Origin: a virus
Taxonomy: Duplodnaviria > Heunggongvirae > Uroviricota > Caudoviricetes
Strand: one strand, 5' to 3'
DNA length: 52,137 bases
Virus record (IMG/VR): IMGVR_UViG_2778261534_000002
Part shown: positions 4,400 through 30,375 of the stretch, piece by piece
Position numbering within the stretch: the first letter of the stretch is position 1
Layout of the letters: each line of letters starts with the position of its first letter
Program-made: the position numbers and the translations under genes
The notes under the pieces: model-generated
The model's database searches: none
Told to the model about the DNA's origin: nothing
Seen by the model: the letters and a program-made list of their open reading frames with translations, nothing else

Positions 4400-4402
4400 T
4401 CA

Positions 4403-4428: not shown

Positions 4429-4481
4429 TATCTGTTCTCACATAAATCACACACTTTTTACACTCACAGCTTTCTCTATAG

Positions 4482-5879: not shown

Positions 5880-5943
5880 ACCAACCGCTGAAATCACATA
5901 CTGATTATGCTGCCGCAAAACTGGAAACAATTTGCGGTGATTC

Positions 5944-8838: not shown

Positions 8839-9801
8839 GTGAGTATTTTAAATTCAGTTTCAGTAACTTTCAACACTTCTGAGTATAAAAACAACACTGA
8901 ATACCACAAAAAAATCAAAGGTCATCAGTTGAGTTTTTTTGCTCGTCATAGCGGTCTTCTTTCCCCTTCACATAGCGCCATTATTGCCGAGTTCGCCAAC
9001 CTGGCAGGGTCTACCGATGAATACATGATCCGTCGCTCATATGCTGATATGTCCGAGATTACAGGACGCAGCATTTCTACTGTGCGCCGGGCATTTGCTG
9101 AAGCGACGAAGTGCGGAATGCTTGTTAAGCAACATCAGGTAGCGAATAACAATGCCCAGGTGTGTAACGTATATCGGTTTACGACACAATTTCTCCACTT
9201 CATTCATGTAGCAATGGAGATAGGGGGTAAGCAGGGCATCAAATTTGCCAACGCCACAAAGCTGGTTAAGCAGTTGATTTCAAAGGTTCGTTATTTTTTT
9301 GAAACTGGGAACCCCCTGTTCAAATTGAACAAGTCCCCCCATGTTCAAAATGAACAGCCAATAGAAAATAAGAGTCACTCTATAGCCAAAAGAAGAGAAA
9401 GATCATGCGCGGTTCAGCCAAAGGCTTCACCAGCAGATAGTACTCAAGCGGATAATGGGGGACTGGATAAAAAAACAGTAATCAGGGAAGAACATACCAA
9501 CCACTGCCTGGCGGCGGCAAAAGCGAGAGCTGCAAAGCGTCGTTCAGACGAGGGGCACGCAAAACGGCAGGCTCTGTATCGTACCGCTGAAAAGCTGGCA
9601 AAAAAATTTGCATGGATACGTAGTGCCGCTACCGCAGTGAATAAGCCTAAACAATCCAGTGCCCTGGATTTCTCAATGGATTATTCTGGCTCCCAGGGGT
9701 GTGTAACCATTGGTGAAGCCTTTGACCTGATGAAACAGCGTGGCTATCGGTCTGAATTTGACCGTGAGGATTGGTCAATCCCGGCGGGCTTTAGGGGATG
9801 A
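8839..9801 (+). CDS. RepL-like replication initiator (tentative)
   Basis: 320 aa (track start GTG); HTH-like N-terminal region, K/R-rich C-terminus; preceded by operator-like motif and palindromes; identification tentative. Confidence 0.35.
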   Translation: MSILNSVSVTFNTSEYKNNTEYHKKIKGHQLSFFARHSGLLSPSHSAIIAEFANLAGSTDEYMIRRSYADMSEITGRSISTVRRAFAEATKCGMLVKQHQVANNNAQVCNVYRFTTQFLHFIHVAMEIGGKQGIKFANATKLVKQLISKVRYFFETGNPLFKLNKSPHVQNEQPIENKSHSIAKRRERSCAVQPKASPADSTQADNGGLDKKTVIREEHTNHCLAAAKARAAKRRSDEGHAKRQALYRTAEKLAKKFAWIRSAATAVNKPKQSSALDFSMDYSGSQGCVTIGEAFDLMKQRGYRSEFDREDWSIPAGFRG

Positions 9802-9854
9802 CCTGTGTGTCTACAAAACATCCCAATGATCGGAAAATGCTCGCTCGATGATTT

Positions 9855-9898
9855 GTGTTAGAAAATTAATTTGCTGTTTCTAAATCGGAATGTATGAT
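9855..9898 (+). promoter_or_regulatory. operator-like motif overlapping sigma70-like promoter of immunity module 1
   Basis: GTGTTAGAAAATTAA (9855-9869) followed by -35 TTGCTG (9871-9876), 16-nt spacer, -10 TATGAT (9893-9898). Confidence 0.45.
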
Positions 9899-10084
9899 CT
9901 GCATCATCGACTGAAGTCATCCATTGCTGAAATTTTTAGTTGATCTTCCATGTTTTCAGGCTTATATTCATGCCGTCGTAGCAAATTCTGCGACCGGGTT
10001 TGACAGCCTGAATACTTACGCGGACAACCGCACATTTCCGATATTGCGGTATTTTTGTGTCCGTAAAACCACGTTACGCCCGAA

Positions 10085-10180
10085 TTATGGTGGGGCGTGA
10101 TGGGGAGGCTTCGGCCTGCTGGTTTCGTAAGTGCCAGTCTGTCAACCCTGTCACGTCCTGCCACCTGTTTGACAGCGGGT
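10085..10180 (+). ncRNA. c4-like antisense RNA candidate
   Basis: structured leader upstream of icd-like gene; TCGTAAGT (10125-10132) is complementary to ACTTACGA at the icd RBS (10197-10204); GGC-ttcg-GCC tetraloop hairpin; boundaries approximate. Confidence 0.3.
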
Positions 10181-10214
10181 CGCAGGTTGTTTATCAACTT
10201 ACGAGGCCGTAACT

Positions 10215-10439
10215 ATGGTTAATGCCAATCCTTGCTCACGCCCAGAATTCATCTGGCGTTTCCACTCCCTGCAAAAACACTGCGATCACTTCGCAATTGC
10301 CGCAACCGAAAAAGAAGCCCGTTCTCTGATCCCTGATCAGTATGGTGTTCTTACTGGTCGTTTCTCTACTTCCCCACAACCAAACACTAATCCCTGGTAT
10401 CGCAATATTACCAATCCCGGAATTGCGGAGGCACACTGA
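10215..10439 (+). CDS. Icd-like small protein of immunity module 1
   Basis: 74 aa; paralog of 49339..49554 (shared EFIWRF and AATE-EARS motifs); stop overlaps ant start (TGATG). Confidence 0.5.
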   Translation: MVNANPCSRPEFIWRFHSLQKHCDHFAIAATEKEARSLIPDQYGVLTGRFSTSPQPNTNPWYRNITNPGIAEAH

Positions 10440-11146
10440 TGGAAATCTGCATTCTTGAAAAGCCATCAATGACCAGCATTGAGATCGCGGAGCTGGTGGG
10501 AAGTCGCCCGGATAACGTTAAACGCACTATTGAACGCTTGAGTAAATCAGGTGTTATTCCACTTCCTCCAATGGAGGTTTCCGAAAATATCAATAACTTA
10601 GGATTTAAAGTTAAAAATTCACACTACGTCTTCGAAGGCGAGCAAGGCAAGCGTGACAGTATCATTGTCGTTGCGCAGCTTTCTCCCGAATTTACCGCCC
10701 GGCTGGTGGACCGCTGGCGCGAACTGGAAGAACAAGTACGCCAGCCGTTGACCGAAATAGAGATGATCGCCGCAATGGCTGCAAATGCAGTTCAGCAGCA
10801 AAAGCGGCTTCATGTTGTTGAGTCAAAGGTTAGCCAGGTGGTAGAAACCGTCGAGCAAATCAAGAAGGGCAACATGCCAGATGGTTACATTGGCTACCGC
10901 CAGCTGGCTGCGAAATGTGGCCTGACCGAAGCCAAATGCCGCAACCTTGTCAACGCTTACCGGATTCCCACCGATACACATGAGTTTTTAACTCCAGAGG
11001 GGGTATTGTCGCGTCGTTCCATCGTGGCCTTATCTCCCTTCATGAATGCTTTTAACCGGATGATGTCGGAGGCTGAACACCGAGGAAAACGCTGGTATCA
11101 CCCCAAAATGGGGCAATTCCAGGTGATCGGTTGGGGAGGTGAGTGA
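10439..11146 (+). CDS. ant: antirepressor (Ant-like)
   Basis: 235 aa; N-terminal SIEIAELVG...PDNVKRTIE region typical of Rha/Ant-type phage regulators; paralog of 49554..50480; translationally coupled to icd-like gene. Confidence 0.55.
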   Translation: MEICILEKPSMTSIEIAELVGSRPDNVKRTIERLSKSGVIPLPPMEVSENINNLGFKVKNSHYVFEGEQGKRDSIIVVAQLSPEFTARLVDRWRELEEQVRQPLTEIEMIAAMAANAVQQQKRLHVVESKVSQVVETVEQIKKGNMPDGYIGYRQLAAKCGLTEAKCRNLVNAYRIPTDTHEFLTPEGVLSRRSIVALSPFMNAFNRMMSEAEHRGKRWYHPKMGQFQVIGWGGE

Positions 11147-11343
11147 TGGACATCATGCAGGCGGTAAAAAAAATCAGGGAAGGACAGGCTGAAGTGTGCC
11201 GCCGTAAAGCATGGAGTGTTGGTGTATGGGCCTGGCCTGATAATTACTCTACTACCGGATGGTTTTGTATTAATGGACTCCAGGTCCGGGAAGTTGATTT
11301 ATCGACGGCTGATATAGTCGGTAATGATTGGATCGTGACTTGA
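11143..11343 (+). CDS. small DUF2829-like protein
   Basis: 66 aa; CRRKAW...GNDWIVT signature shared with four other domains in the window; start overlaps ant stop. Confidence 0.45.
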   Translation: MMDIMQAVKKIREGQAEVCRRKAWSVGVWAWPDNYSTTGWFCINGLQVREVDLSTADIVGNDWIVT

Positions 11344-11351
11344 AGCGTGAT

Positions 11352-11376
11352 GCCCCGGCCTGGCCGGGGCTTTTTT
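11352..11376. terminator. bidirectional intrinsic terminator
   Basis: GCCCCGGCC-tgg-CCGGGGC then TTTTTT, between convergent genes. Confidence 0.65.
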
Positions 11377-11861
11377 CATGCCTCATTAGTTGAGGTTGCT
11401 GCGTCTCCGACTGGTAACAGAGCGGTATTGCGTGGTTCGCCAGCAGGCCAGCGATAGCCAGACACTCTTGATGTTGGGAATGCGCGAATATTAACCGCAT
11501 CCCCCTGGTTCCCACCCAGGACAAGCAGATCGCCATTGGCGCGGCGTCCGACAACGAAGCCTACGTGCCCACCGCCTACGCGGGTAAATACAACGATACA
11601 TCCGTATGCCGGTGTATCTAATTTCTCGCCCCAATCCAGATAGGATTTTGCCGACTCAAATCTTGTTGAGCGGATGCCTACACGTTCCAGCATTGCACCG
11701 ACAAATGCTGCGCACCACGGCGTTTCATCGTCTTTAATTCCGCCGCGCTTGATGTCGCGCCAGAACTGAACGATTTCAGGGTTGTGTTTAGCGCCTTTTA
11801 TTTCAGTCAGGCCAATGTGCTTACGGGCTTCAATTAGCCAGCGAGGTTCAATGTTTGCCAT
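11376..11861 (-). CDS. CHAP/NlpC-P60-like putative cell-wall hydrolase (TIGR02594-type)
   Basis: 161 aa; conserved Cys motif PWCAAFV and His motif GGHVGFV. Confidence 0.45.
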   Translation of the reverse strand: MANIEPRWLIEARKHIGLTEIKGAKHNPEIVQFWRDIKRGGIKDDETPWCAAFVGAMLERVGIRSTRFESAKSYLDWGEKLDTPAYGCIVVFTRVGGGHVGFVVGRRANGDLLVLGGNQGDAVNIRAFPTSRVSGYRWPAGEPRNTALLPVGDAATSTNEA

Positions 11862-12012
11862 ATTTTTCTCCCGGTCATGGGTTAATAAGTAGGCAAACTA
11901 TGGGGAGTATGTGATTTTGACGGTAGTATCGTCCCCCTGAAAATAACATTCTCCATACCCTCTCAACCGTACCGCATAGCGGAATTTTTTACGGTTTAGA
12001 GGGGGAAATCCT

Positions 12013-15000
12013 TTGGACAAACTACTTCATTCAATCAGTGAAGCCTCCAGCTTAGGCGAACTGATTGAAATTGTTAGTCGGTTGCATAAATTACGTGCTG
12101 TTGCGACCTTTGGCGTCAGGAAAGCCGATGGCGTCAGTATTCAGAAAACACGCCGGGCAGCAAACAATGCCGCAGTAAATCTTCTTAATTCCCTTCCGCC
12201 CGGCTTCGATGGGGCGAAATTAACTGACGAACAACGTCAGATTCTTGCTGGGTATACCGGTGAAGGCGGCCTGACAGATGGTGAGGGCAGCCAATACGAA
12301 TACTACACGCCACAGTTTATGGCTGAAGGTATATGGGATCTGTTTGCTGACTACGGTATTGATGGCGGGCACGTACTGGAACCATCAGCGGGCACAGGTA
12401 TTTTCCAGGAGACAAAACGGCAGGGCATGATAATGACCAGCGCGGAACTGTCTCCGATTTCTGGTCGAATAAACCAGCTTTTGCACCCGGAAGACGATGT
12501 GAATATCGGGGCGTTTGAGGCGCTGGCGGCGAAAGATGCAATGTATGACCACGCTGTTGGTAACGTACCGTTTGGTGAAGGGCGTTCCGGCGTTGCCGGG
12601 CTTGATCCGGCATATGCAAACGAGAAGAACGTTGGCAATTACTTTGTGCTGCGCACGATCGACAAGGTTAAGCCTGGTGGGCTTATCGTATTGGTGGTGC
12701 CAAATGGCATGACCGATGGTACGAAATATAAAAAATTGCGCGATAAAGTCAGCCGTAAAGCGGAATTTTTGGGCGCACATCGTATGCCTTCCGGTACGTT
12801 CAGCGAATCCGGTACAGATACCGTGGTGGACGTATGGGTATTGCGTAAACACCCGGAAACCTTCCTGGAGATGATCCCCGACACGGATGATTCAACACTC
12901 AAATCGGCAAACGTCCTTTGGGATACCTTCCTCAAAGGAAAATGGTTTACAACCGAAGGGAAGCGATTTGTTTACGGCGACATGGAACGTACCAGCTTCC
13001 GCAATACCTTGGTGGTGAAAAAAGACGGTCGTGTATCCAATGAGTCGATGAAAACCGCGCTATCTCGTCGCTTTGATAGTCGCATCAATTGGGATTTGCT
13101 CGGCGTAACTACTCAGGCATGGCAGGGCGCGAAAGTGGGCGATAAACGCCTTGTAGGCGGTATCTGGCATGAGTTTGATGGTCTGAAATGGGTTAAGGAC
13201 ACGACAACTAAATCCTCCGCGCTTGATGTAAGTCGATATGGTGTTTCGACGTTTGGCGATCTGCAGATCGCGTTCCAGTCAACAAACGGGATTCTGTCTT
13301 TGTCATGGGACCAGATATCGGCGATCGCGTCCGACTATCCATCGGTTGTCAGTGATGACGTGGCAGCAATGATTCGCTTTGCTGGCAAGCAGCGAGAAAA
13401 AGACAGGGAGCGCGTTATGCGCGGTGCGCTGATAGGTCAGTTGATCAACAAGGCACTTGATTTGCGTAACCTGGGTGTGAACGTTGATGACAAACTGGCA
13501 GATGCATCCCGCCTGGCGGCAGCAGAAGTTGCGAAGTATGGACCACCGCACGCCATTAAGCTGAATGGGCTTGCTGAAGCTGGCGCTAAAAACTGGATGA
13601 CGTTCACTGGCAATGTGAAACAGGATGGTTCCACTTCTGACCTTCTGGCAGGGCGACTTGATGTAACGGATGGTGCTGCCGGTATTGACTTTACACGTCC
13701 TGAACAAGTGATAGCACATCTTTTCAGTGATGTAGCCCTTAATCCTATAACGCTGGGAGACTTTCGTGAGGCGTTTGCTGGTGAACTGCCAGAGGACGAC
13801 GACGCGGCCCTTGAATACCTGGCGAAATTTGATGATATCGCTATTGATGGGTATGGCTGCCTGCTGCCGATGGACCGCGCCACCAGCGGCGATATTGCAA
13901 CCAAAACAGCATTGCTGATGGGCTGGCGTGATGCGTCAACAGGTGAGCAGAAAGCGAACTTTGAGCGTCAGTTGGCGAAAATCGAAGAGAAACGTATTTT
14001 CACGCCACTAAATAAAGTCACCGTTAATCTGAATGCCCGCTGGCTGGATCGCCGCTTGATAAAAGAGTTCCTGGCAGAGCAGGGCTATGACGAGTTTAAG
14101 TACACTGAACCTGATCTGAAGGTCGTCGATGGCATTCTGGTATCTCCGGACGATTACGAAGGTAAGGACGGGGTATTTACCGGCTATCAGCTACGAACCG
14201 TAAACGGCAAAAACGGGAATGAGTTCAAGAAGGCCAACAATAAAGACGGCTTCCTGAACCAGTTAGAAAACTACCTGAACGGTGTTAAACCGCGTGGGCA
14301 GAACGCTAACGAGTACCTGGATAAAATTGCTCAACTGGAAGTTAGTTTTAACGACTGGTTACGCACTCACCCGCAGGCTGATCAGATAGCCCGCGAGTAT
14401 AACGACGCATTCAATGGTTTCATTCCGTTCACGCATTCTGACGCACCGCTTGGCCTGGAAGGGCTTAGTGGAAAGCGCATTCCTCTTACTTATCAGAATG
14501 AAGAAGTTCGGCGCTTGTCAGAAGATGGGCGCGGCATCATGGGATTTGGTACCGGGCTGGGTAAAACCACGACCGCGCTTGCGCTTGAGGCGTATAACTT
14601 CGAAACAGGTCGCACTAAACGCACGTGTATTGTTGTTCCGAAGGCGGTTTATCAGAACTGGTATCACGAGGCACAGAGTTTCTACAGTGCTGATGCCTTT
14701 GCCAATATGATGTTTATCGGTTTGGATGAAGTTCGTGATGACAGCGGAAATATTCTGACCGCGCCGGTGCTTGATGAAAATGGCGAACCACGCCTCGACA
14801 GTAACGGGCAGCCTCTTACCAGAAATGTTGTGAAAGAGTCCGCCAGCGCCGTTATCGTTCAGCGCATGAACATGATCCCGTCGTCAAATTGGCGAACGGT
14901 CATCATGACAAAAGAACAATTCGCGTCTATCCCGCTACGAGAAAAAACCATCGAGGAGAACTCACAGCAAGCTGTCTTTAATGCTGTGGAAATGGGGCGT

Positions 15001-18000
15001 CTTGACCTGGCGTCCGGTAAACACCGTGATGCGCAGAAGAAGAACAAGATTAAGGATCAGGCCGCGAATACCGGTACAACGAAGAAGCAGAATATCCCGT
15101 ACTTTGAGGATATGAACTTCGATAGCGTGATTGCCGACGAGGGGCATAACTACCGCAACTCCTTTAATGCCGGGCGTGAAGCGGGACAACTGGCATATTT
15201 GCCTAACCCGGCAGTATCCAAGATGGCCCGCGACATGGCTGTAAAAGCTGCGTACATGATGAAACGCAACAACGGGCGTGGTGTAGTCATGCTGACGGCA
15301 ACTCCGCTGGTGAACAGTCCGATTGATGCCTTCAACATGCTGTCTACTGTCATTCCGCAGGAAGAGTGGATGCGCATGGGCATCATTACGCCTGATGATT
15401 TCGTTCGTGTGTTTGGCAAAACAGCCACAGTTCAGGTCCAGAAAATTTCCGGGGAAGTGGAAGAGAAGCAGGGGCTGGTGGGCTTCCAGAACCTTGACGG
15501 CCTGCGTGGTATTTTCCATCGTTGGACCACTCTGAAGACTGCTGCAGATGTCGGAGCAACGGTTAAAATTCCCGACATCATTGAGAACACCTTGCAGATC
15601 CCGATGACAGGGGAGCAGGAGACTGCTTATGAAGAGCTTCGTAAGCGTGCTCAGGAGTTAAGTCGCAATGATGAGCTGACAGTCGATGAAAACGGGCATA
15701 TCACTAACGACAAACCGGATGATTTCATCTTCTCCATCATCCGTGACATGGACAAGGTTGCTATAGACCCGGATCTGTATGCCAGTGCGATTACATTCCA
15801 GTTCCCCGTTGAGCTTGCAGACCAGGTAAAAGCTATTGCTGATGCCTTGCCAAAAGTAGCTGGCGGTAAAGTGGCAGATGATGTTGATGAGGCCGAGGAA
15901 GACGGCGCTGGCGGGCTGGTCAGTACGCGTACCAGCAAGGTAGTGAAGACCGCTTTTAGTGAACATCCGACGCATGTTGAAATACGTGCCAGCATTGAAC
16001 TGGAAGCTGAAATACTTAAGGCCATTGCGGCTGCCGGTATTGATATGCAGCAGGTATCGCACCCCATCCCGCCGAAGTATGCCGCGCTGATCGAAAATCT
16101 TCGTGAAGGTCTGAAGAACGGTAAGCAGATCGTCTTTATTGATGAAAAAGCCCAGCACCAGAAGCTGCGCCGTATTATCGCCAGTGCACTGCAAATGCCG
16201 GAGCAGGAGATTGGCATTATCAATGCGACGACAGTTAGCCAGGCTGGCGGCATCAAGCTGAAGAAGGTGAATAAGCCGACCGAACCTACTCCAAACAAAA
16301 ACGGTGAATACAAAGAAGGGGCATGGGAAACCTACTACAGCAAACTTGCCCAATATGAGGATTATCTCTCAGCCAAAAATGATGCTGGCCTTGAGGGCAT
16401 GGAAGGTATTGCCGCCGACTATAACGAAGGTCGCACGCGCATCATAATCTGTAACAAGAAGGCTGAAGTAGGTATTAACCTGCACATCGGGACAACCGAT
16501 ATCCACCACCTGACACTACCCTGGACACCAGCCAGTATCGACCAACGAAATGGGCGCGGTGCGCGCGTAGGTTCACCGCAAGAGAAGGTCAATGTTCACT
16601 ACTATTGTGGCAAAGGCACATTCGACGACTTCCGTCTGGATACGCTGAAACGTAAGAAAGACTGGATCAAGATGGTGATGACCTCCGACATGTCAGAGAT
16701 CGCCAATGGTGATGCGGATGATGCTGATGAACGCGCCATTATGCTGGCGGCAAACCCGGAAGAACGCCGCGCAATCATGGCTCGCCAGGCGCAAGAGCGT
16801 GAAGAACGTCTGAAACTGAAAGCACAGCGCGAGGCCAACAATGCTCTCGATATCTACCTGAAAGCGGCAAACGCCGCCGGAAAAGATATCGGCATGATGG
16901 AGACAGAACTGAAAAGCGCGATGGAACAGATAGAGTATTACCAGCGCAATCTTGACGACCTGATAAAAGCGGGTACGAACAGGAATGGGCAAAAATACGC
17001 GCTTGAGCAGTTGAGTAGCTACAGAAAACGTGCGCGGGTGCTGAAGTTTGCGATCACCAGGGCAAAAGACGCGGATACCATAATGAAACGCTCTCGTGGT
17101 GATGTGGAGCGCGCTATTAAGTCTGGTGTGCTGGATATCAGTATCGATGTTATTCAGAACCCACAGGAATATATGCGCACTGACAAGAATATCCTGTTGC
17201 ATAAAGGTAGTTATTACCGTGCAGTCATTGATGATCGCGAAACAACAGCGATTGTCCGGGTGGAAAAAATTGACGGTGAAAAAGCACAATACATCTGCCG
17301 TATCGCCTGGCTGGATAGAGCAAGTCGTTACGCTCGATCACCGGGGTCAATCGTTACATTGCCGTTTGACTCTGTGATTGAAGCGGTAACTTTTGAAGAG
17401 GGGGTAGCTGAATCGCGCGCAACGGCTGCGCGTGGTGTTCAGTGCCACCAGCTATCAACGTCACTTACTCGCGATCAGTTCTATGATGCTATTCGTAACG
17501 GAGTAATGAAGGTCACTACAGGCCAGCCTGGTAGAGCATGGGGCGGTGAACCAGGTATTAAATACTGGGCCTATCGCACCGATGATGGTCAGATCGCGCT
17601 GTCATCGACCTATGATGGCATGATAGGACAGAAAATCGGGCGTACATCGGATATTGCACCAGAGCAGTGGATTTACCCTGATATCAACAATGAGGCGCTG
17701 AAGCGTGAAGTGGCAAAAATACAAGCCAGTGATAATCCGCTGAATATCGTGGACGGAGAGGGATTCCTCCAGGCATTGTATGGGTATGATTACATCCAGG
17801 GAATGCAGGCATGGGGCGCACAAGCAACGATGGATGATGTTGCCCAGGAGTTCGAAAACTGGATGGCTGGGCGTGGTCTGTCAGGTCGCTCGCTTAATAA
17901 AGTCACTTCTGAAGATATTCTTAGCTTGTTCCGCAAACCGTCCGGAGAAGGTCTGGAATCATTCTGGAGGACCGTGCTGGCATACCGTTTATTCCAGGGC

Positions 18001-18849
18001 AGGATGAAAGCCTTTAGCAATATCGATGATATTGAACGGATGTTTAATCAGGTCAAGATAGCGAAAATTAAGACGAAGATCGAAAAAACACGTTCTGCGC
18101 TGGTGGCCTGGCGCGATGCATTGTTTGAGCAATATAAATCACTCAGTGATGCAGATGGATGGGCGGCATTGGAACAGCTGGCGAATAATGGGGTAGATGG
18201 AGCGAAACTCGCCATTGTTCAGGCTGATAACCCCCTGGAATCACCGGCAGCACAGTGGATTAAGGTGGGGGCTGTCATCAATGCATTTGATGAAAAATAC
18301 ATTAGTAAGGACGATTTTGCTGATGCTGTTTCTGTTAATCGCCTGGTAGAAATGGCTACCCGCCGCGCCCGTGAGTTGAAAGACGGCGACTATGTGAATG
18401 AGTTGCCGGATACGCTCAAATCGGCAACGTGGCAGGACTATGTATCGCTGAAAAACGGCGGGGCCACTGAATCAGAGATCGCGGAAAGGCTTGAGCAGGC
18501 TGAAAGCAAAAGAGAAGAGCAGGCGGCAGTGGCTGAAGCCAGAGCTGATGAAGCGGCGAATGATGACTATATCATTGTGGTTAATGATAAGCCGATTCGC
18601 GCTAAGGCGCGTGTTCGCGGGCGCTGGTGGAGCGTCAGCGAGGACGTTGGCGCGGTTTATCTCATTGCCGACCAACCAGGTTCCTCGACAATACGGAACG
18701 CCAAAGACGCGATTAAGAAGATTGGCGGGCGTTTCTGGAATTTTGAAGCAAACCCGGTTGCTGATGTGAACTTTGACCGTCCTGCATGGATGGTATCTAC
18801 GCGTTACTCGGTAGATGAACTGCGTAAAATAATCGCCGATGCGGCCTAA
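12013..18849 (+). CDS. darB: DarB-like giant antirestriction protein (N6-adenine methyltransferase + helicase)
   Basis: 2278 aa from TTG 12013 (SD GGGGG); methyltransferase motif I EPSAGTGIF and motif IV NVPFGE; helicase Walker A GFGTGLGKTT and DEGHNY box. Confidence 0.85.
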   Translation: MDKLLHSISEASSLGELIEIVSRLHKLRAVATFGVRKADGVSIQKTRRAANNAAVNLLNSLPPGFDGAKLTDEQRQILAGYTGEGGLTDGEGSQYEYYTPQFMAEGIWDLFADYGIDGGHVLEPSAGTGIFQETKRQGMIMTSAELSPISGRINQLLHPEDDVNIGAFEALAAKDAMYDHAVGNVPFGEGRSGVAGLDPAYANEKNVGNYFVLRTIDKVKPGGLIVLVVPNGMTDGTKYKKLRDKVSRKAEFLGAHRMPSGTFSESGTDTVVDVWVLRKHPETFLEMIPDTDDSTLKSANVLWDTFLKGKWFTTEGKRFVYGDMERTSFRNTLVVKKDGRVSNESMKTALSRRFDSRINWDLLGVTTQAWQGAKVGDKRLVGGIWHEFDGLKWVKDTTTKSSALDVSRYGVSTFGDLQIAFQSTNGILSLSWDQISAIASDYPSVVSDDVAAMIRFAGKQREKDRERVMRGALIGQLINKALDLRNLGVNVDDKLADASRLAAAEVAKYGPPHAIKLNGLAEAGAKNWMTFTGNVKQDGSTSDLLAGRLDVTDGAAGIDFTRPEQVIAHLFSDVALNPITLGDFREAFAGELPEDDDAALEYLAKFDDIAIDGYGCLLPMDRATSGDIATKTALLMGWRDASTGEQKANFERQLAKIEEKRIFTPLNKVTVNLNARWLDRRLIKEFLAEQGYDEFKYTEPDLKVVDGILVSPDDYEGKDGVFTGYQLRTVNGKNGNEFKKANNKDGFLNQLENYLNGVKPRGQNANEYLDKIAQLEVSFNDWLRTHPQADQIAREYNDAFNGFIPFTHSDAPLGLEGLSGKRIPLTYQNEEVRRLSEDGRGIMGFGTGLGKTTTALALEAYNFETGRTKRTCIVVPKAVYQNWYHEAQSFYSADAFANMMFIGLDEVRDDSGNILTAPVLDENGEPRLDSNGQPLTRNVVKESASAVIVQRMNMIPSSNWRTVIMTKEQFASIPLREKTIEENSQQAVFNAVEMGRLDLASGKHRDAQKKNKIKDQAANTGTTKKQNIPYFEDMNFDSVIADEGHNYRNSFNAGREAGQLAYLPNPAVSKMARDMAVKAAYMMKRNNGRGVVMLTATPLVNSPIDAFNMLSTVIPQEEWMRMGIITPDDFVRVFGKTATVQVQKISGEVEEKQGLVGFQNLDGLRGIFHRWTTLKTAADVGATVKIPDIIENTLQIPMTGEQETAYEELRKRAQELSRNDELTVDENGHITNDKPDDFIFSIIRDMDKVAIDPDLYASAITFQFPVELADQVKAIADALPKVAGGKVADDVDEAEEDGAGGLVSTRTSKVVKTAFSEHPTHVEIRASIELEAEILKAIAAAGIDMQQVSHPIPPKYAALIENLREGLKNGKQIVFIDEKAQHQKLRRIIASALQMPEQEIGIINATTVSQAGGIKLKKVNKPTEPTPNKNGEYKEGAWETYYSKLAQYEDYLSAKNDAGLEGMEGIAADYNEGRTRIIICNKKAEVGINLHIGTTDIHHLTLPWTPASIDQRNGRGARVGSPQEKVNVHYYCGKGTFDDFRLDTLKRKKDWIKMVMTSDMSEIANGDADDADERAIMLAANPEERRAIMARQAQEREERLKLKAQREANNALDIYLKAANAAGKDIGMMETELKSAMEQIEYYQRNLDDLIKAGTNRNGQKYALEQLSSYRKRARVLKFAITRAKDADTIMKRSRGDVERAIKSGVLDISIDVIQNPQEYMRTDKNILLHKGSYYRAVIDDRETTAIVRVEKIDGEKAQYICRIAWLDRASRYARSPGSIVTLPFDSVIEAVTFEEGVAESRATAARGVQCHQLSTSLTRDQFYDAIRNGVMKVTTGQPGRAWGGEPGIKYWAYRTDDGQIALSSTYDGMIGQKIGRTSDIAPEQWIYPDINNEALKREVAKIQASDNPLNIVDGEGFLQALYGYDYIQGMQAWGAQATMDDVAQEFENWMAGRGLSGRSLNKVTSEDILSLFRKPSGEGLESFWRTVLAYRLFQGRMKAFSNIDDIERMFNQVKIAKIKTKIEKTRSALVAWRDALFEQYKSLSDADGWAALEQLANNGVDGAKLAIVQADNPLESPAAQWIKVGAVINAFDEKYISKDDFADAVSVNRLVEMATRRARELKDGDYVNELPDTLKSATWQDYVSLKNGGATESEIAERLEQAESKREEQAAVAEARADEAANDDYIIVVNDKPIRAKARVRGRWWSVSEDVGAVYLIADQPGSSTIRNAKDAIKKIGGRFWNFEANPVADVNFDRPAWMVSTRYSVDELRKIIADAA

Positions 18850-18885
18850 CAGATAAGGAGCGGCCCCAACCGGGGCCGAATTTGA

Positions 18886-19320
18886 ATGACGACATTAATT
18901 GACACTGTAAAACCGACGGAATCCTACCTTGAGGACATTTTGCCGCAGGCGCTCAATGGCAGGAGTGAAGAAGAATACCTGACAGTTTATCTTGATGGCA
19001 TGGTAGAAAGACTGAAGAAAAATCCACAGCTTTATCACCTTTATGGGCCGTGGTGGCCTGCGCTTAAAACGTTATTGCTGGAGCGCGGCGACATATCATT
19101 TGGACAAGTTGTAGATAGTGATGTGGCAGAGATCTACAAAATGAGTCGCCCGGCGCTTACGGTTTTGGCTGGGCATCTGTATTCGAGCGATCGCCTGGGA
19201 AATGACGCGGTATACAATCCCGTTCATGCTCTGGAAGTCGCACCTTATGCTGATGATACAGAGCCATACGTGTACATAAGTTACGACGAGTCTATAGAGA
19301 AATATCGAATCATGGGGTAG
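18886..19320 (+). CDS. hypothetical protein
   Basis: 144-aa ORF immediately downstream of darB after a short GC hairpin; no recognizable motif. Confidence 0.45.
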   Translation: MTTLIDTVKPTESYLEDILPQALNGRSEEEYLTVYLDGMVERLKKNPQLYHLYGPWWPALKTLLLERGDISFGQVVDSDVAEIYKMSRPALTVLAGHLYSSDRLGNDAVYNPVHALEVAPYADDTEPYVYISYDESIEKYRIMG

Positions 19321-19322
19321 CC

Positions 19323-19583
19323 ATGCGAAAGAATCGTAGGTTTACGGTCGAAGACCTAAAGGAATATTCCATATCGAAGGGGTATATCCTTGAGTTCCAC
19401 CGATACAAGAAGGTTTTTACGCTGCGAAAAGCAGAAAACCCTGCGAACTGGAGCTGGATATACTTTCCTCACACCGATGATAAGTTGGTAGAACTTGTTG
19501 ATGATTTAACCTATGAAGGTTGGTTGATCGCAATCGACAAGACAATCAAAGAATTATCCGAACAGGATAAAATAACCCTTTAA
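19323..19583 (+). CDS. hypothetical protein
   Basis: 86-aa ORF, 2 nt after preceding stop; followed by hairpin. Confidence 0.4.
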   Translation: MRKNRRFTVEDLKEYSISKGYILEFHRYKKVFTLRKAENPANWSWIYFPHTDDKLVELVDDLTYEGWLIAIDKTIKELSEQDKITL

Positions 19584-19595
19584 AAATAACAGGTT

Positions 19596-19625
19596 GGGTA
19601 AATGCCATGCGATTTACCCTCCTTG
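19596..19625 (+). terminator. terminator-like hairpin
   Basis: GGGTAAAT-gccatgcg-ATTTACCC then TCCTTGTTG. Confidence 0.4.
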
Positions 19626-19756
19626 TTGATTAAGGTCACTCTTTACTCTAAAAGCAAATCCGACCTGTTGCATATAGACCATCCTTGAGTAGTATCTCTC
19701 TTGTTTTACAAATCTAACGTTGTTGTTATTATTTCGCATATTTACTATCAATGGGT

Positions 19757-19771
19757 GTGTTAGAAAATAGC
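19757..19771. promoter_or_regulatory. operator-like 15-bp motif
   Basis: GTGTTAGAAAATAGC. Confidence 0.35.
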
Positions 19772-19904
19772 GCGAAAGAGAAGGCGTCGCAGTGAATATT
19801 CTGAAACATCCCCACATGCCGCAGCTCTTAGAGAACTGGAGAAAAACCCAGATCTAATCAAAAGGAACCATGAGCATTACGAGCAGGTTCGCGTCCTGGA
19901 CTGG

Positions 19905-20213
19905 TTGTATCGCAATATGCGTTATGTGTATGAGCATACTCACGCCACTCCAAACGGTGGCCTGCGAGGCATAAGGACGGCAATAAAAATGGTGGCAGAG
20001 GGCCAAAAGAAGGGATATCCCGATCTTTCTATAGACCTTGCTTGTGGGGGATACCACGGAATGCGCATTGAGATGAAACATGGGAGAAATCGCCTGACTC
20101 CCGAACAACTCGTCTGGATGACCCGCCTCACTGAAGCCGGTTACTACTGCTTTGAGGCGCGCAGTGCCGCTGAAGCCATAAAAGCTATCACGGAGTATGT
20201 TTGTCTTGATTAA
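19905..20213 (+). CDS. VRR-NUC domain nuclease
   Basis: 102 aa; GYPDLSIDL...EMK arrangement typical of VRR-NUC (PD-(D/E)xK) proteins. Confidence 0.6.
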   Translation: MYRNMRYVYEHTHATPNGGLRGIRTAIKMVAEGQKKGYPDLSIDLACGGYHGMRIEMKHGRNRLTPEQLVWMTRLTEAGYYCFEARSAAEAIKAITEYVCLD

Positions 20214-20227
20214 ACGGAGAAATCGTT

Positions 20228-20428
20228 TTGCGTTTACTTAACGTGGCAGAACTTATCCCTGCAGGAACTAATGCTATCGCTCGTCGTCGCTCATGGCAGC
20301 AGGCTCTATGTATTGAGATCTCGAAACGTATCAATGGAAGTTTTGAAGCTCGCAATATTGTTACTGGCGATAAGGTTCACATAACCCCGGAAAGTGCAAG
20401 CGCTGATGATTGGGAGTTTGTACATTGA
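20228..20428 (+). CDS. small DUF2829-like protein
   Basis: 66 aa; ARRRSW ... ADDWEFV signature as in the other DUF2829-like domains. Confidence 0.4.
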   Translation: MRLLNVAELIPAGTNAIARRRSWQQALCIEISKRINGSFEARNIVTGDKVHITPESASADDWEFVH

Positions 20429-20724
20429 GCAAAAAATATTATGTGAGTCTGGCGTTCGCTGACGATGCGGGGAGGACGCGGAGTATCACGTTGAGCACAC
20501 CGGTTAAGGCTGTGACAGCGCCGTTAATCCGTGAAGCTCTCAGAGAGCTGGAATTGGGTGAAAACTCGGCACTGTTGTCGGTTAGTTGGTTAGGGAAAAT
20601 GTCAGAGAAACAATACGTGGATGGAGTTACCCCAATAACAGTAATGAGGCTACTTTCATTGCTGCAATGGGCCATCGTACCTGTATTTATCGCGTATCTT
20701 ATTTATCAGGCTGCAACACAGTAA
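20410..20724 (+). CDS. hypothetical protein with C-terminal transmembrane helix
   Basis: 104 aa; hydrophobic C-terminus LLSLLQWAIVPVFIAYLIY; followed by strong terminator. Confidence 0.4.
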   Translation: MGVCTLSKKYYVSLAFADDAGRTRSITLSTPVKAVTAPLIREALRELELGENSALLSVSWLGKMSEKQYVDGVTPITVMRLLSLLQWAIVPVFIAYLIYQAATQ

Positions 20725-20730
20725 TTGCAT

Positions 20731-20758
20731 AAAAACCCGCCAATTAGCGGGTTTTTTG
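20731..20758. terminator. rho-independent terminator
   Basis: ACCCGC-caatta-GCGGGT followed by TTTTTTG; A-run upstream allows bidirectional use. Confidence 0.8.
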
Positions 20759-20798
20759 TTTATTGCATCTTCCGGTACCGCCATCAAACTAATAAAAT

Positions 20799-20813
20799 AT
20801 GTTAGAAAACTAA
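20799..20813. promoter_or_regulatory. operator-like 15-bp motif (consensus copy)
   Basis: ATGTTAGAAAACTAA, identical 15-mer also at 42923 and as reverse complement at 31428 and 48523. Confidence 0.45.
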
Positions 20814-20822
20814 TTTAACAAA

Positions 20823-22046
20823 GTGACGGGAACAGCAATGAGTCAACACACTGATACTTCTAATCTGGAAATTATCTCGACAGCAATTGAAACGCTGCGC
20901 ACACAAATCGCTCTTATACAGAAACGGAATCCGGGTGATGACCTGTCAAAGCGACTGCACGAGAGTGTCATTGCCACTACAGATAACCTGGTGGCGGAAA
21001 TCAACAAGCTGCTTGATGATGGGGCAGTTGATTACAATAAGCTGGTGGATCAGTTTGAGGAATACCAACAAGCCGTTAATGATGGCTTGATCCGTTTTTC
21101 ACAAGTCACAGGCGTATCAGCGACAGTTGAAAGCCTGGGTGATGCAGTTAATCAATTTGCCGCGAATATGCGTAATGAGATCGGCAATCTGGAAGCGCGT
21201 CTTGAACAGGCAAATACACTGCGTAAATCTGCCGAAGCCGATTTGAACCGTTACAAAAAAGACTATCCGCCCAGCCTGACAAAGCGGCTGGATGTTGCGG
21301 AGAAGGATAACCGCGCGCTGAAAAGAGAGCGCCGGGAACTAAAAGAGCGTTTAACCAAGCTCAATCAGCAATGCATTGATTATCAAGGCGAAGGCGTCAC
21401 ACTGCGTAAAAAGTTGGCTACAGCGCAGAGCATTATCGAAACATTAAAGCGAGAGTGCTCACAGCTTGGTCACGATCTGAACCGTGCTTGTGGCATGGGA
21501 CAAAGACCAGAGACATTTCCACTCATGTATGATGGAAGGGATGCCATTGCCTACATCCATGAGTATCCGCACGGCCTGGTTGCGGAAACAGGGCAGCGTG
21601 GCGAAGCACTGTTGACGGCTAATTACCATCAACAAATCAGAACCAATCGCCTGTTAACGATGGATGTGATCCCATCGGTATGGGGAACGCCGCTTTACTA
21701 TCGCCTGCCGGGCTTCGAAAAGGACTGGAATACCGACATAGACGAATGTCTCGCAGATAAAATTATGGCGTACCTGGAGACGGATTTTCCGCGCTTATAT
21801 CGCCGGATTATGGACTCTAAGGATGCGCCAATCGATGAATTAAAAATGCGTCCGGAGACGCTGGAGGCAATCAAGCAGACGGAGTTTGATACTGTATTCA
21901 GTGTGGCCTGCATTCCAAGCTGTTTCCATGAAAGCATCCCGTTCATGCAAGGAGATCGTCGTCAGGAAATCATTGACGCTTGCCGGGTATGGGCGAACGA
22001 ATGGGATAAGAAGAATGGGGGTGTAGAAGATCTTTATGGGAAATAA
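20823..22046 (+). CDS. hypothetical protein, N-terminal coiled coil
   Basis: 407-aa ORF (probable start ATG 20838); coiled-coil N-half, Cys/His-containing C-half; no recognizable catalytic motif. Confidence 0.5.
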   Translation: MTGTAMSQHTDTSNLEIISTAIETLRTQIALIQKRNPGDDLSKRLHESVIATTDNLVAEINKLLDDGAVDYNKLVDQFEEYQQAVNDGLIRFSQVTGVSATVESLGDAVNQFAANMRNEIGNLEARLEQANTLRKSAEADLNRYKKDYPPSLTKRLDVAEKDNRALKRERRELKERLTKLNQQCIDYQGEGVTLRKKLATAQSIIETLKRECSQLGHDLNRACGMGQRPETFPLMYDGRDAIAYIHEYPHGLVAETGQRGEALLTANYHQQIRTNRLLTMDVIPSVWGTPLYYRLPGFEKDWNTDIDECLADKIMAYLETDFPRLYRRIMDSKDAPIDELKMRPETLEAIKQTEFDTVFSVACIPSCFHESIPFMQGDRRQEIIDACRVWANEWDKKNGGVEDLYGK

Positions 22047-23280: not shown

Positions 23281-23357
23281 GATGGTGTAGCTCAGTAGGA
23301 TAGAGCAGCAGCCTTCTAAGCTGTCGGTCGGTGGTTCGAATCCACCCACCATCGCCA
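23281..23357 (+). tRNA. tRNA-Arg (anticodon UCU)
   Basis: 77 nt; 7-bp acceptor stem GATGGTG/CACCATC, anticodon loop CTTCTAA, T-loop GGTTCGAATCC, 3' CCA. Confidence 0.9.
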
Positions 23358-23362
23358 ATTTA

Positions 23363-23449
23363 GGGGAGTTAGTCCGTAGGGGTAGCGGGGTAGACTGTAA
23401 ATCTACTGTCATTGCGACTCGGGTGGTTCGACTCCATCACTCCCCACCA
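23363..23449 (+). tRNA. tRNA-Tyr (anticodon GUA), long variable arm
   Basis: 87 nt; acceptor GGGGAGT/ACTCCCC, anticodon arm GTAGA-CTGTAAA-TCTAC, variable-arm stem GTC/GAC, 3' CCA; D-arm atypical. Confidence 0.7.
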
Positions 23450-23453
23450 AATT

Positions 23454-23529
23454 GCCGGTTTAGCTCAGTTGGTAGAGCGCCTGCCTTGTAAGCAGGATGT
23501 CAGCGGTTCGAGTCCGTTAACCGGCACCA
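23454..23529 (+). tRNA. tRNA-Thr (anticodon UGU)
   Basis: 76 nt; TAGCTCAGTTGGTAGAGC D-arm, anticodon loop CTTGTAA, T-loop GGTTCGAGTCC, 3' CCA. Confidence 0.9.
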
Positions 23530-23580
23530 ACACAACAGGTAAGGGCATTCTCCCTTATGGGGCTTGGCTTAAATGCATCG

Positions 23581-23609
23581 AGTGCTCTTACCGTTGTGAT
23601 GAAGTGCAG
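23581..23609. repeat. 30-nt spacer repeat, copy 1
   Basis: AGTGCTCTTACCGTTGTGATGAAGTGCAG; related copies at 23811 and 24112. Confidence 0.5.
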
Positions 23610-23724
23610 CTCTTTGAAGCAACCAGAAGATAAGCATCTGGCTTCACAACATAAACCGCAGGAACGACCAATAAACGGTAGTCCGTATGGAGAACACCCC
23701 GTTGAGGAAGAGGCCTGGCCGGAA

Positions 23725-23741
23725 CCGTAACCGGCACCACA
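23725..23741. repeat. duplicated tRNA-Thr 3' end fragment
   Basis: CCGTAACCGGCACCAC repeats the 3' end of tRNA-Thr (CCGTTAACCGGCACCA, 23514-23529) about 210 nt downstream. Confidence 0.45.
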
Positions 23742-23810
23742 ACGTTGAGAACACTGGCGTAACGGGGTCATATCCCAATCTATGAATAAATGTTGCGTTG
23801 CAGCGTGACA

Positions 23811-23844
23811 ACCAGTGTTCTCAACATTGTGGTGAATGCACAGG
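23811..23844. repeat. 30-nt spacer repeat, copy 2
   Basis: CCAGTGTTCTCAACATTGTGGTGAATGCACAGG; its first 16 nt are also the reverse complement of AACGTTGAGAACACTGG at 23741-23757 (large stem-loop). Confidence 0.45.
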
Positions 23845-23931
23845 CTGATGTGCCGCAACTACAGTAGTGCGCGCTTTGCGGGGCTTGCTACAACCCTGTG
23901 TCGGAGTTCAGCACCGACCATCACAATCACT

Positions 23932-24018
23932 GGAGAGTAGGGAGCATGGTGCTCAAGCGGTCTTGAAAACCGTCCCATTGCGCAAGCGATGATGGTTCGA
24001 TTCCATTACTCTCCGCCA
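23932..24018 (+). tRNA. tRNA-Ser (anticodon UGA), long variable arm
   Basis: 87 nt; acceptor GGAGAGT/ACTCTCC, anticodon loop CTTGAAA, T-loop GGTTCGATTCC, 3' CCA. Confidence 0.85.
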
Positions 24019-24111
24019 GTGCAACGTTAAGAGTATTTGGCTAATTAAGCGAATGCCGGAAGCAGAACCGGATCACCAAATGCGTACAGGCGTCATCGCC
24101 GCCCAGCCAGC

Positions 24112-24142
24112 CAAGTGCTCTTACCATTGCGGTGAATGCGGC
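24112..24142. repeat. 30-nt spacer repeat, copy 3
   Basis: CAAGTGCTCTTACCATTGCGGTGAATGCGGC. Confidence 0.5.
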
Positions 24143-24281
24143 TAAGCGCACGCGGAACAGTTAAAACAATCCTCCTTAGTGGTTAAGTCAAACATCCCGG
24201 CGTTAATTGTTAACTGGTTAACGTCACCTGGAGGCACCAGGCACCGCAGCTTTTTTATTCGGTAAATAATGGAGTGAGAGG

Positions 24282-24518
24282 ATGCAGAACAATCCGAACA
24301 AATGTCGAACGCTATGGGTGCGGTTATATATTTATGTCGTCCTCTGTTTGATTGTGTCACTGGTTCTGTATGTTTGGCTTTTGCCAAATATGATCTCATC
24401 TGACAGCACAATACTTGTATTGTTGGGAGTCCTTCTCGCGCTCATTTACCCGGCTTTTGCAGTAGTCTTTTTTCGTGAAAAAACCAGGAAATTGATTAAT
24501 GAAAAAAACGTTGATTAG
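24282..24518 (+). CDS. small integral membrane protein
   Basis: 78 aa, two hydrophobic helices, SD GGAGTGAGAGG before ATG; overlaps start of the SPFH lipoprotein gene. Confidence 0.45.
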   Translation: MQNNPNKCRTLWVRLYIYVVLCLIVSLVLYVWLLPNMISSDSTILVLLGVLLALIYPAFAVVFFREKTRKLINEKNVD

Positions 24519-25326
24519 TGCAGCGATTATTTTTGGTTCTTTATGTCTGACCGGATGCGATCGGGTAGAGCCAGGTAACGTAGGGATCAAAGTAAATAAG
24601 CTGGGGGATGATAAAGGTATCGGTGAAGTAGTTGGCGTTGGTCGCTACTGGACAGGCTTGAATACTGAAGTTTATATCTTCCCGACCTTTAAGCAAATGA
24701 AGACATACGATGAGCCGTTCAGCTTCCAGATGAGCGACGGAACAACCATTGGTTACCACATCGGCGTAGCCTACAAGGTTGATCCAGCAAAAGTCACAAC
24801 GGTATTTCAGACCTATCGCAAAGGTGTAGATGATATTACTGATACCGATCTACGCCAGAAGGTTGCAGATGCTCTGAACCGGTTAGCCAGCAAAATGACC
24901 ACCGACAAATTTATCGACGGTGGCAAATCTGAATTGCTTGATGCAGCCCTTAAAGACATTCAGGAAGAAATGACGCCCATCGGTATTCAGGTAATGAGCC
25001 TCTCATATGTGGGCAAGCCGGAGTACCCGCCAACCGTTATCGACAGCATTAATGCCAAAGTCACGGCGAACCAGAAAACTCTGCAACGCGAGCAGGAAGT
25101 CAAGCAACGCGAAGCAGAAGCCAACATGCTGCGCGCAGAAGCTGCTGGACAGGCCGATGCCATTCGCACAAAAGCCCAGGCTGAAGCTGATGCCATTCGT
25201 TTACGCGGTGAGGCTCTGCGCCAGAACCCCGGCGTTATGGAGTTGGAAGCGATCAACAAATGGAACGGAACGCTACCGCAGTATATGACCAGTAATACCG
25301 CTGTTCCGTTTGTTCCGGTGAAATAA
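24499..25326 (+). CDS. SPFH/band-7 (prohibitin-like) lipoprotein
   Basis: 275 aa; signal peptide with lipobox LTGC; SPFH-like core followed by Ala/Glu-rich coiled-coil tail. Confidence 0.65.
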   Translation: MKKTLISAAIIFGSLCLTGCDRVEPGNVGIKVNKLGDDKGIGEVVGVGRYWTGLNTEVYIFPTFKQMKTYDEPFSFQMSDGTTIGYHIGVAYKVDPAKVTTVFQTYRKGVDDITDTDLRQKVADALNRLASKMTTDKFIDGGKSELLDAALKDIQEEMTPIGIQVMSLSYVGKPEYPPTVIDSINAKVTANQKTLQREQEVKQREAEANMLRAEAAGQADAIRTKAQAEADAIRLRGEALRQNPGVMELEAINKWNGTLPQYMTSNTAVPFVPVK

Positions 25327-25339
25327 CCAAATAGATAAC

Positions 25340-25471
25340 ATGATGGAATTTTGGACGTTTGCCGACAAGAACCCTTGGTGGACATTTTTATTTCTGCTGG
25401 TGGTTGCATATGGGGTCGAGCAAGCAGCAAAAGCCTTACGCGGTCCTGGCAAAAAGCGTAAGCGGAATTAA
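25340..25471 (+). CDS. small membrane protein (43 aa)
   Basis: MMEFWTFADKNPWWTFLFLLVVAYGV...KKRKRN; single TM helix with basic tail; below the ORF-track length cutoff; found by eye. Confidence 0.3.
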   Translation: MMEFWTFADKNPWWTFLFLLVVAYGVEQAAKALRGPGKKRKRN

Positions 25472-25480
25472 CAGTAATCT

Positions 25481-30368: not shown

Positions 30369-30375
30369 GTTGTGA

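Follow-up and report, generated by a model that had tools for sequence, protein, structure and literature searches.

The window analysed here, a stretch of 52,137 nucleotides (nt) held as IMG/VR virus record IMGVR_UViG_2778261534_000002 and assigned to the Caudoviricetes, is identifiable from its sequence as a D6-type P1-like phage-plasmid. Its Dar antirestriction genes are laid out in the ordinary D6-type version of the darB-ulx-lxc and darA operons of phage P1, an arrangement that is already known. We regard it as probable that positions 11376–19583 of this phage-plasmid form two back-to-back late units, a rightward one comprising darB, ulx and a gene in the position of lxc, and a leftward one comprising a single gene for a CHAP-type hydrolase. 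The four genes are as follows.

11376–11861, minus strand: CHAP/TIGR02594 hydrolase gene (D6 orf16), 161 amino acids (aa), NlpC-P60 superfamily; probable endolysin
12013–18849, plus strand: darB homolog, 2278 aa, TTG start; N6-adenine methyltransferase, SF2/SNF2-type helicase and a diverged C-terminal third
18886–19320, plus strand: ulx homolog (D6 orf14), 144 aa
19323–19583, plus strand: 86-aa gene (D6 orf13, PHROG 6844) in the lxc position; probable diverged Lxc/Bof-family protein

Phage D6 is a P1-like plasmid prophage. Positions 11000–20000 of the window are 98.5% identical in nucleotide sequence to Escherichia phage D6 (MF356679 / NC_050154) over the full length of the query, and the window, which is oriented as the reverse complement of the D6 record, can be aligned with it almost throughout. 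The genes orf13–orf16 and orf25–orf30 of D6 recur here with the same order and orientation. Genes similar to darB, ulx, hdf, darA, ddrA and ddrB and a putative peptidoglycan hydrolase gene are already annotated in the GenBank record of D6, in which orf13, the equivalent of the 86-aa gene, is labelled only as hypothetical. In PLSDB, 103 plasmids of Escherichia coli and Salmonella cover at least 80% of the query 9800–21000, and all 30 listed among them are 98.6–99.4% identical to it; the locus is therefore common and has been sequenced many times already. PADLOC returned only generic helicase and methyltransferase domain matches for DarB and none for the small proteins, so the locus is not a known defence system.

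The first-pass annotation of this DNA had called the same four open reading frames (ORFs), and we find each of them at the positions and on the strands listed above. Its description of the largest as a DarB-like methyltransferase-helicase holds. The 2278-aa protein matches the Pfam domains N6_Mtase, SNF2/ResIII and Helicase_C as well as PHROG profiles, and its residues 1–1935 align with P1 DarB at 43% identity over 2001 columns. A global alignment places methyltransferase motifs I/IV (PSAGTG, NVPF) and the helicase motifs GTGLGKT (Walker A), DEGH and TATP at matching positions, so that domain order and catalytic motifs are the same in both proteins; past residue 1600, in the last third, identity to P1 DarB drops to a mere 20–30%. 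The 144-aa ORF directly after darB is, on the strength of its sequence, Ulx, a known Dar component: it shares 49% identity with P1 Ulx (E=8e-46), matches PHROG 1629 'Ulx-like anti-restriction' (E=1.5e-58), and is separated from darB by 36 nt, compared with 33 nt in P1. D6 orf14 is described in GenBank as 'similar to P1 gene ulx', and the PGAP name of the gene in plasmids is olxA. Sigma-70-like promoters within ulx were absent at the threshold of our scan, whereas P1 ulx has three annotated. We consider the orthology of the darB-ulx pair and its collinearity with P1 to be virtually certain.

This order bears on an earlier expectation. The first-pass annotation had looked for a ulx gene upstream of darB on the same strand and had taken the divergent CHAP gene to stand in its place. 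In the P1 reference annotation, however, darB (10469–17236), ulx (9995–10435) and lxc (9750–9998) are all on the minus strand, so that on the coding strand the order is darB, ulx, lxc. Ulx is present immediately downstream of darB here, exactly as in P1, and upstream of darB nothing is missing. What follows lxc does differ, in that the EcoP1 res/mod genes found there in P1 are lacking at this position in the window.

The remaining Dar genes lie downstream of lydA-lydB (719–1491), and here tblastn gave matches to all four of the corresponding P1 proteins.

1481–2101, plus strand: hdf homolog (D6 orf28), 40% identity to P1 Hdf by tblastn; DarA_N domain, E=8e-18
2094–4031, plus strand: darA homolog (D6 orf27), 38% identity over 625 aa by tblastn; DarA_N and DarA_C domains
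4031–4399, plus strand: ddrA homolog, 32% identity to P1 DdrA by tblastn, E=1.5e-15
4482–5879, plus strand: ddrB homolog, 465 aa, 64% identity to P1 DdrB by tblastn; ddrB-ParB domain, E=2.7e-42

An hdf/darA/ddrA-like operon at about 1481–5879 had thus been recognized correctly, as had its separation from darB by head genes, a RepL-like gene and an immunity module: between the two loci we find prt, pro, repL and an immI-like module, which consists of a C4 antisense RNA gene (10083–10168) with its a1/b1 targets (9962–10014), followed by icd and ant. A second C4 antisense RNA gene at 49197–49284 adjoins a match to isrK (49074–49152), so that the element carries two immI-like modules. We do not agree that the separation is a departure from P1. 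In P1 itself, hdf-darA-ddrA-ddrB occupy 24542–30436, with prt, pro, lysis genes and others between this operon and darB, and darB is 7.3 kb from ddrB, compared with 6.1 kb here. Because the split layout is the norm in P1, the 6.1-kb separation is no notable rearrangement. What differs is the arrangement of the intervening genes, in that prt and pro are co-oriented with darB here, with repL and the immI-like module in between, whereas in P1 they are directly divergent from darB. All six components of the P1 Dar system (hdf, darA, ddrA, ddrB, ulx and darB) are accordingly present, distributed as in P1 over a darB-ulx locus and a lydAB-hdf-darA-ddrA-ddrB operon several kilobases apart, although the proteins are only 32–64% identical to those of P1. 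Features of the window are a strongly diverged C-terminal third and N-terminal 30 residues of DarB and a DdrB of half length, 465 aa versus 995 aa in P1; its match is confined to residues 2–442 of P1 DdrB, and neither D6 nor the window contains anything that corresponds to the C-terminal half of the P1 protein. As a separate observation, about 1.1 kb with orf24 (DUF4145) and orf23, which in D6 separates ddrB from the portal gene prt, is absent at 5840–5890 of the window; the gap looks like a variable accessory slot, and D6 and the window differ by other small indels elsewhere.

The two late units are marked by a sequence motif. In the upstream regions that we read, the 12-mer AAATCACATACT precedes prt and is found again, in the opposite orientation, ahead of the CHAP gene, and a search allowing two mismatches places the same box before lydA, ddrB and darB. 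The pattern AAATMACANNCT-N3-YANNNT has five exact matches in the window versus 0.28 expected by chance, and 10 in D6, where shuffled sequence gave a mean of 0.5 and a maximum of 2. All 10 D6 sites are correctly oriented and lie 30–137 nt upstream of lydA, ddrB, prt, orf16, darB, R, pmgB, gene 23, gene 7 and mat; the five that are additional to those of the window are 39–137 nt upstream of R, pmgB, the major capsid gene 23, the tail gene 7 and mat. Every late operon that we checked has the motif ahead of it. The sites, the putative activator gene and the hairpins that border the two units are listed below.

11897–11917, minus strand: late-promoter motif AAATCACATACTCCCCATAGT, 36 nt upstream of the CHAP gene start
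11941–11961, plus strand: late-promoter motif AAATAACATTCTCCATACCCT, 52 nt upstream of the darB start
666–686, plus strand: late-promoter motif upstream of the lydA-lydB-hdf-darA-ddrA operon
4444–4464, plus strand: late-promoter motif upstream of ddrB
5891–5911, plus strand: late-promoter motif, a match to AAATMACANNCT-N3-YANNNT; the prt site
38115, 45491, 54124, 67393 and 72100 of the D6 record: extra D6-type late-promoter sites
27087–27479, plus strand: lpa homolog (late promoter activator), Pfam BPP1_LPA, E=5e-57
11352–11370, no strand assigned: GC-rich hairpin where orf17 and the CHAP gene converge, an 8-bp all-GC stem followed by TTTTTT; terminator-like on the plus strand
19596–19619, plus strand: weak terminator-like hairpin just past the darB operon, with an 8-bp stem and a T-poor tail

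A divergent D6-like lineage (contigs L010–L012) retains both of the sites that flank the CHAP-darB gap, each with unchanged spacing to its gene and, for the darB site, with one mismatch. The presumed reader of the motif is the Lpa homolog. Given that the motifs are conserved and correctly oriented at late genes and that an Lpa homolog is present, the CHAP gene and the darB-ulx-lxc-like genes are, by prediction, two divergent late units with back-to-back promoters. Late promoters are annotated in P1 for at least prt, lyz, lydA and mat, and the promoter that lyz has to itself is mirrored by the motif of the CHAP gene. The upstream box of the P1 late promoters, AAGTGACTT, is unlike the D6-type box: the consensus AAGTGACTT-N4-TANNNT, taken from four annotated P1 sites, had no meaningful matches in the window, so D6 does not use the P1 box. 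A palindrome upstream of lydA, ACTAAGTTAGT, was also considered as a candidate box and proved no commoner than chance. In P1 (L003), we observed one D6-type box with one mismatch, AAATCACAAAGTACATACCGT, on the minus strand at 31571–31591, 39 nt upstream of lydC. The gap between the two divergent promoters is not always empty, for in L010–L012 a 165-aa ORF (1082–1579 in L010; PHROG 14789) is inserted between the CHAP gene and darB. Its N-terminus resembles the Cor exclusion lipoprotein, and it has a weak prealbumin-like fold match. Because it lies between the divergent late promoters, upstream of that of darB, this ORF looks like a moron outside the darB operon.

With respect to the leftward unit, the call of a divergent CHAP/NlpC-P60-like gene in the first-pass annotation is well borne out. 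The 161-aa protein matches TIGR02594 (E=5e-42, 143.3 bits, cutoff 70.55) and Pfam CHAP (E=2.7e-7, 31.4 bits, cutoff 26), and the motifs DDETPWC (Cys50), GGGHVGF (His99) and LGGNQ are invariant among five homologs of 43–96% identity, which fits a Cys-His hydrolase. No relative was found among PDB sequences. By inspection, a hydrophobic segment is absent from its N-terminus, so that release of the enzyme would depend on a holin. We searched the 91-kb D6 genome and the window with P1 Lyz, LydD and LydE by tblastn and found nothing (best E=0.26), and the D6 annotation lists no soluble muralytic enzyme besides orf16, the only other hydrolase being the Sit tail protein, whose homolog in D6 is annotated as a tail injection transglycosylase. 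Free-standing TIGR02594 proteins occur in 543 phage records, and those with a clear gene context belong to lysis cassettes. Pseudomonas phage Ab26 encodes a holin, the TIGR02594 protein (ORF02) and two spanins, and gp35 of Pseudomonas phage PaMx11 lies between membrane proteins and is annotated as a putative endolysin. In Pseudomonas phage ZC01 the TIGR02594 protein (ZC01_075) adjoins a holin (PMC5418858), in Aeromonas phiA051 the order is holin, TIGR02594 protein (ORF05), an unnamed phage protein and then an Rz1-like protein (PMC11292799), and a role in lysis has been suggested for the ortholog in pYU39_89 (PMC6799933). The window protein belongs to the same family as these phage endolysins, being 42–47% identical to those of Ab26 and PaMx11, of similar size and with the invariant Cys and His motifs; their genes are part of holin-endolysin-spanin cassettes, whereas the gene in the window stands alone. 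The proposed role is that of P1 Lyz (gp17), and in both elements the gene is apart from lydAB with a late promoter of its own (LPlyz in P1), but P1 Lyz is a lysozyme and the window protein an NlpC/P60-CHAP cysteine hydrolase, and their sequences are unrelated. Based on these comparisons the CHAP gene probably encodes the endolysin. As it has its own late promoter and is the only endolysin candidate in a genome without P1 Lyz, it is most likely a lysis gene and not a Dar component.

The last gene of the rightward unit required more sensitive comparisons. P1 Lxc (Bof) is a modulator (co-repressor) of the C1 repressor. The 86-aa ORF starts 2 nt past the ulx stop codon, and P1 lxc, of similar length (82 aa), overlaps ulx by 4 nt; in both elements the gene directly follows ulx. 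An initial homolog search with the 86-aa protein retrieved only six close clusters, and the profile of those six sequences gave an hhalign probability of just 0.27% against P1 Lxc. An exhaustive search with hidden Markov models (HMMs) covering 1.84 billion representatives, to which a later profile search added more relatives, brought in distant members of 85–94 aa on contigs of 30–115 kb from Xenorhabdus, Plesiomonas, Hafnia, Citrobacter, Yersinia and Enterobacter, and the Lxc signal appeared only after these had joined the profile: the hhalign probability rose to 27% with 13 sequences (P=6.7e-4) and to 70.5% with 21 (P=3.9e-5). The 21-sequence alignment with P1 Lxc extends over 64 columns and Lxc residues 12–75 at about 17% identity. 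In a shuffle control, 200 shuffled Lxc sequences scored at most 19.3, compared with 29.8 for the real one, and hmmsearch on 428 ORFs, obtained by six-frame translation of P1 and three unrelated phage loci, ranked that of Lxc first (E=0.003; the next had 1.4). A large protein collection offered hardly any Lxc homologs other than near-identical or frameshifted ones, which precluded a useful Lxc profile. By eye, the end motifs of the family and of Lxc are alike (KKRYYTV and KRKYYYL, VRDRAFEEWEQIIIDN and IRDATIEEWSHIMRSN, LLNAD and RLNAD), and AlphaFold models of the orf13 protein and of Lxc both consist of a helix, strands and a long helix.

Gene order agrees with this relationship. At the related loci examined, which represent seven further P1-like lineages, the family member always follows darB and a small gene, with start and stop codons abutting or overlapping; at the Hafnia locus the overlap with the preceding gene is 4 nt, as in P1. 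Contigs L010–L012 retain the succession of CHAP gene, darB, 144-aa gene and 86-aa gene, and on the short contig L013 the 154-aa gene before the family member matches PHROG 1629 'Ulx-like' (E=2.3e-48). In Plesiomonas, Hafnia and Citrobacter the family member comes after darB and a 145–149-aa gene (PHROG 1629, E=1e-38 to 1e-46), darB encoding 2232–2296 aa in Plesiomonas and Hafnia and being called as three fragments in Citrobacter, and in Xenorhabdus and Enterobacter it is preceded by darB, of 2176 and 2304 aa, and by a gene call of only 116 or 89 aa. The small gene is thus confirmed as Ulx-like in L013–L016; L018 and L019 have the shorter gene call at this position. As in P1, prt and pro diverge from darB at the Plesiomonas and Hafnia loci. 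The element also encodes the presumed partner of an Lxc-like protein:

30376–31413, minus strand: C1-type prophage repressor, 21% identity to P1 C1 over 240 aa, E=2e-8; the annotation of D6 orf1 agrees

With the C1 repressors of this element and P1 sharing only 21% identity, it is plausible that Lxc has diverged to the same degree. We therefore think it likely that the 86-aa gene is a diverged homolog of the Lxc family, recognizable at the level of profiles and not in pairwise comparison. An analysis of a D6-like Salmonella plasmid reported Lxc as not detected (PMC6799933), and our assignment is a small correction to that report.

A number of points weigh against this account, and they also supply the arguments for its alternatives. 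The Lxc homology is marginal. BLASTP gave no alignment of the 86-aa protein with P1 Lxc, HMMER puts the family and Lxc in different PHROGs, the two structure models are of low or moderate confidence (predicted local distance difference test, pLDDT, 70 and 57), and Foldseek found nothing below E=0.01 for the orf13 model in BFVD and PDB or for the Lxc model in BFVD. Together with the negative six-sequence comparison, the lack of any matching Pfam or NCBIfam family and the published non-detection of Lxc in D6-like plasmids, these results would fit a lineage-specific small gene, unrelated to Lxc, at the end of the darB-ulx operon. We consider that somewhat unlikely given the nearly full-length match of the deeper profile, a real score well above those of 200 shuffles, the first rank of the Lxc ORF among the decoys, and the agreement with P1 in length, position, start/stop coupling to ulx and end motifs. 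It is very improbable, in our view, that the Dar system has been rearranged in the way envisaged by the first-pass annotation, with the CHAP gene in place of ulx and the two small ORFs as new accessory components; as regards ulx and the split, this view is already refuted. Both ORFs are there, tightly coupled to darB with gaps of 36 and 2 nt, and a Dar-related role of the 86-aa gene would be compatible with the linkage of its family to darB-ulx, seen in each lineage that was examined; but ulx is downstream of darB in P1 and the first small ORF is Ulx itself, not a new component, the second aligns with Lxc and is better explained as a diverged member of that family, separation from the darA operon is normal for P1, and the CHAP gene belongs to an endolysin-type family and has its own promoter on the opposite strand. 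A related idea starts from the Lxc assignment. An Lxc-like gene follows darB-ulx in all the P1-like lineages sampled (P1, D6-like, Plesiomonas, Hafnia, Citrobacter, Xenorhabdus and Enterobacter), and if this linkage is taken as functional, the Lxc/orf13 family could be a seventh Dar partner, for example one that is co-packaged and injected with DarB and Ulx or that couples anti-restriction to immunity, which we hold to be quite unlikely.

The endolysin assignment has its own difficulties. The CHAP gene is on the strand opposite to lydA/lydB, at a distance of about 10 kb and outside any lysis cassette, and the best PHROG of its product, PHROG 1259, is labelled 'baseplate hub subunit and tail lysozyme', the domain corresponding to the C-terminal part of the 1179-position profile. 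A late promoter, which is expected of structural genes too, fits a virion protein equally well. These observations would suit a virion-associated lysin that penetrates the cell wall at infection, in which case another protein would be the endolysin, and we retain this reading, unlikely as it is, because the domain occurs in large tail proteins and in type VI secretion effectors, as described for the latter (PMC13055248). The PHROG label is, moreover, attached to many phage records. Against a virion lysin, the protein is free-standing with only 161 aa, D6 already has the Sit homolog for tail injection, the 91-kb D6 genome offers neither another annotated soluble muralytic enzyme nor a tblastn match to P1 Lyz, LydD or LydE, and free-standing homologs lie between holin and spanin genes. 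For the proposed promoters, the pattern was derived from window sites, which is why it was tested on the rest of D6. Finally, in P1 the first 30 residues of DarB form a capsid-targeting signal for which no consensus is known (PMC9024508), and this segment is poorly conserved here, with about 9 of 30 residues identical when counted by eye from the alignment. DdrB corresponds only to the N-terminal 45% of its P1 counterpart, and because of its half length the pathway of Dar assembly may differ from that of P1. Packaging, injection and anti-restriction activity are carried over from P1, the basis here being homology, gene order and promoter motifs.

With these points in mind, we propose that the divergent late units would work as follows. 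From the promoter at 11941–11961 the rightward unit would be transcribed through darB, ulx and the lxc-like gene, collinear with darB-ulx-lxc of P1. In P1, six Dar proteins enter the capsid stepwise, DarB last and by way of its N-terminal signal, and their delivery accompanies that of the DNA (PMC9024508). By analogy, Hdf, DarA, DdrA and DdrB, expressed from the separate lydAB-hdf-darA-ddrA-ddrB late operon, would enter the procapsid at the beginning, Ulx and the 250-kDa DarB methyltransferase-helicase would be added at the end, and the Dar proteins would accompany the injected DNA into the cell, where they would shield it in cis from type I restriction. The last gene of the unit would most likely supply a diverged Lxc (Bof)-family partner for the equally diverged C1 repressor instead of a Dar component. 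From the promoter at 11897–11917 the leftward unit, which consists of one gene, would produce a cytoplasmic cysteine peptidase or amidase of the TIGR02594/CHAP type, most likely an endolysin that is released via the LydA holin and that constitutes a non-orthologous replacement of P1 Lyz.

Several observations concern other genes of the window. A 66-aa ORF at 11143–11343 (D6 orf17), between ant and the CHAP gene, has a weak Pfam match to the Tad2-like (Thoeris anti-defence 2) family that is below the cutoff (E=0.022, 15.7 bits) and spans profile positions 1–72 of 73. The 191-aa protein encoded at 26011–26586 (D6 orf6) exceeds the Pfam cutoff for a Tad2-like Thoeris anti-defence domain (E=1.1e-9, 39 bits) and, on this domain match, may be a second counter-defence gene of the phage-plasmid. 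After the darB operon, a good sigma-70-like promoter (TTTACA-16-TATTAT with an upstream TG, 19705–19732) precedes a pmgM-like VRR-NUC gene (19720/19905–20213), for which the D6 annotation and PGAP choose different starts, giving 495 and 309 nt, respectively. ARAGORN predicts five tRNA genes on the plus strand at 23281–25556 (Arg-TCT, Tyr-GTA, Thr-TGT, Ser-TGA and Met-CAT), whereas the D6 GenBank record has three tRNAs (Asn, Thr and Ser) on the opposite strand in the same area, part of which is just 89% identical to D6.

Since the Dar layout is already known, what this analysis adds to the existing annotation is small, namely the Lxc-like assignment and the D6-type late-promoter motif, and these by-products may serve those who work on these common phage-plasmids of E. 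coli and Salmonella. The distinct D6-type late box, AAATCACAnnCT-N3-TAnnnT, identifies darB and the CHAP gene as late genes that are independent of each other, and a TIGR02594 hydrolase appears to replace the P1 lysozyme as the endolysin. D6-like elements probably encode a diverged gene of the Lxc family at the syntenic position, which bears on their immunity.

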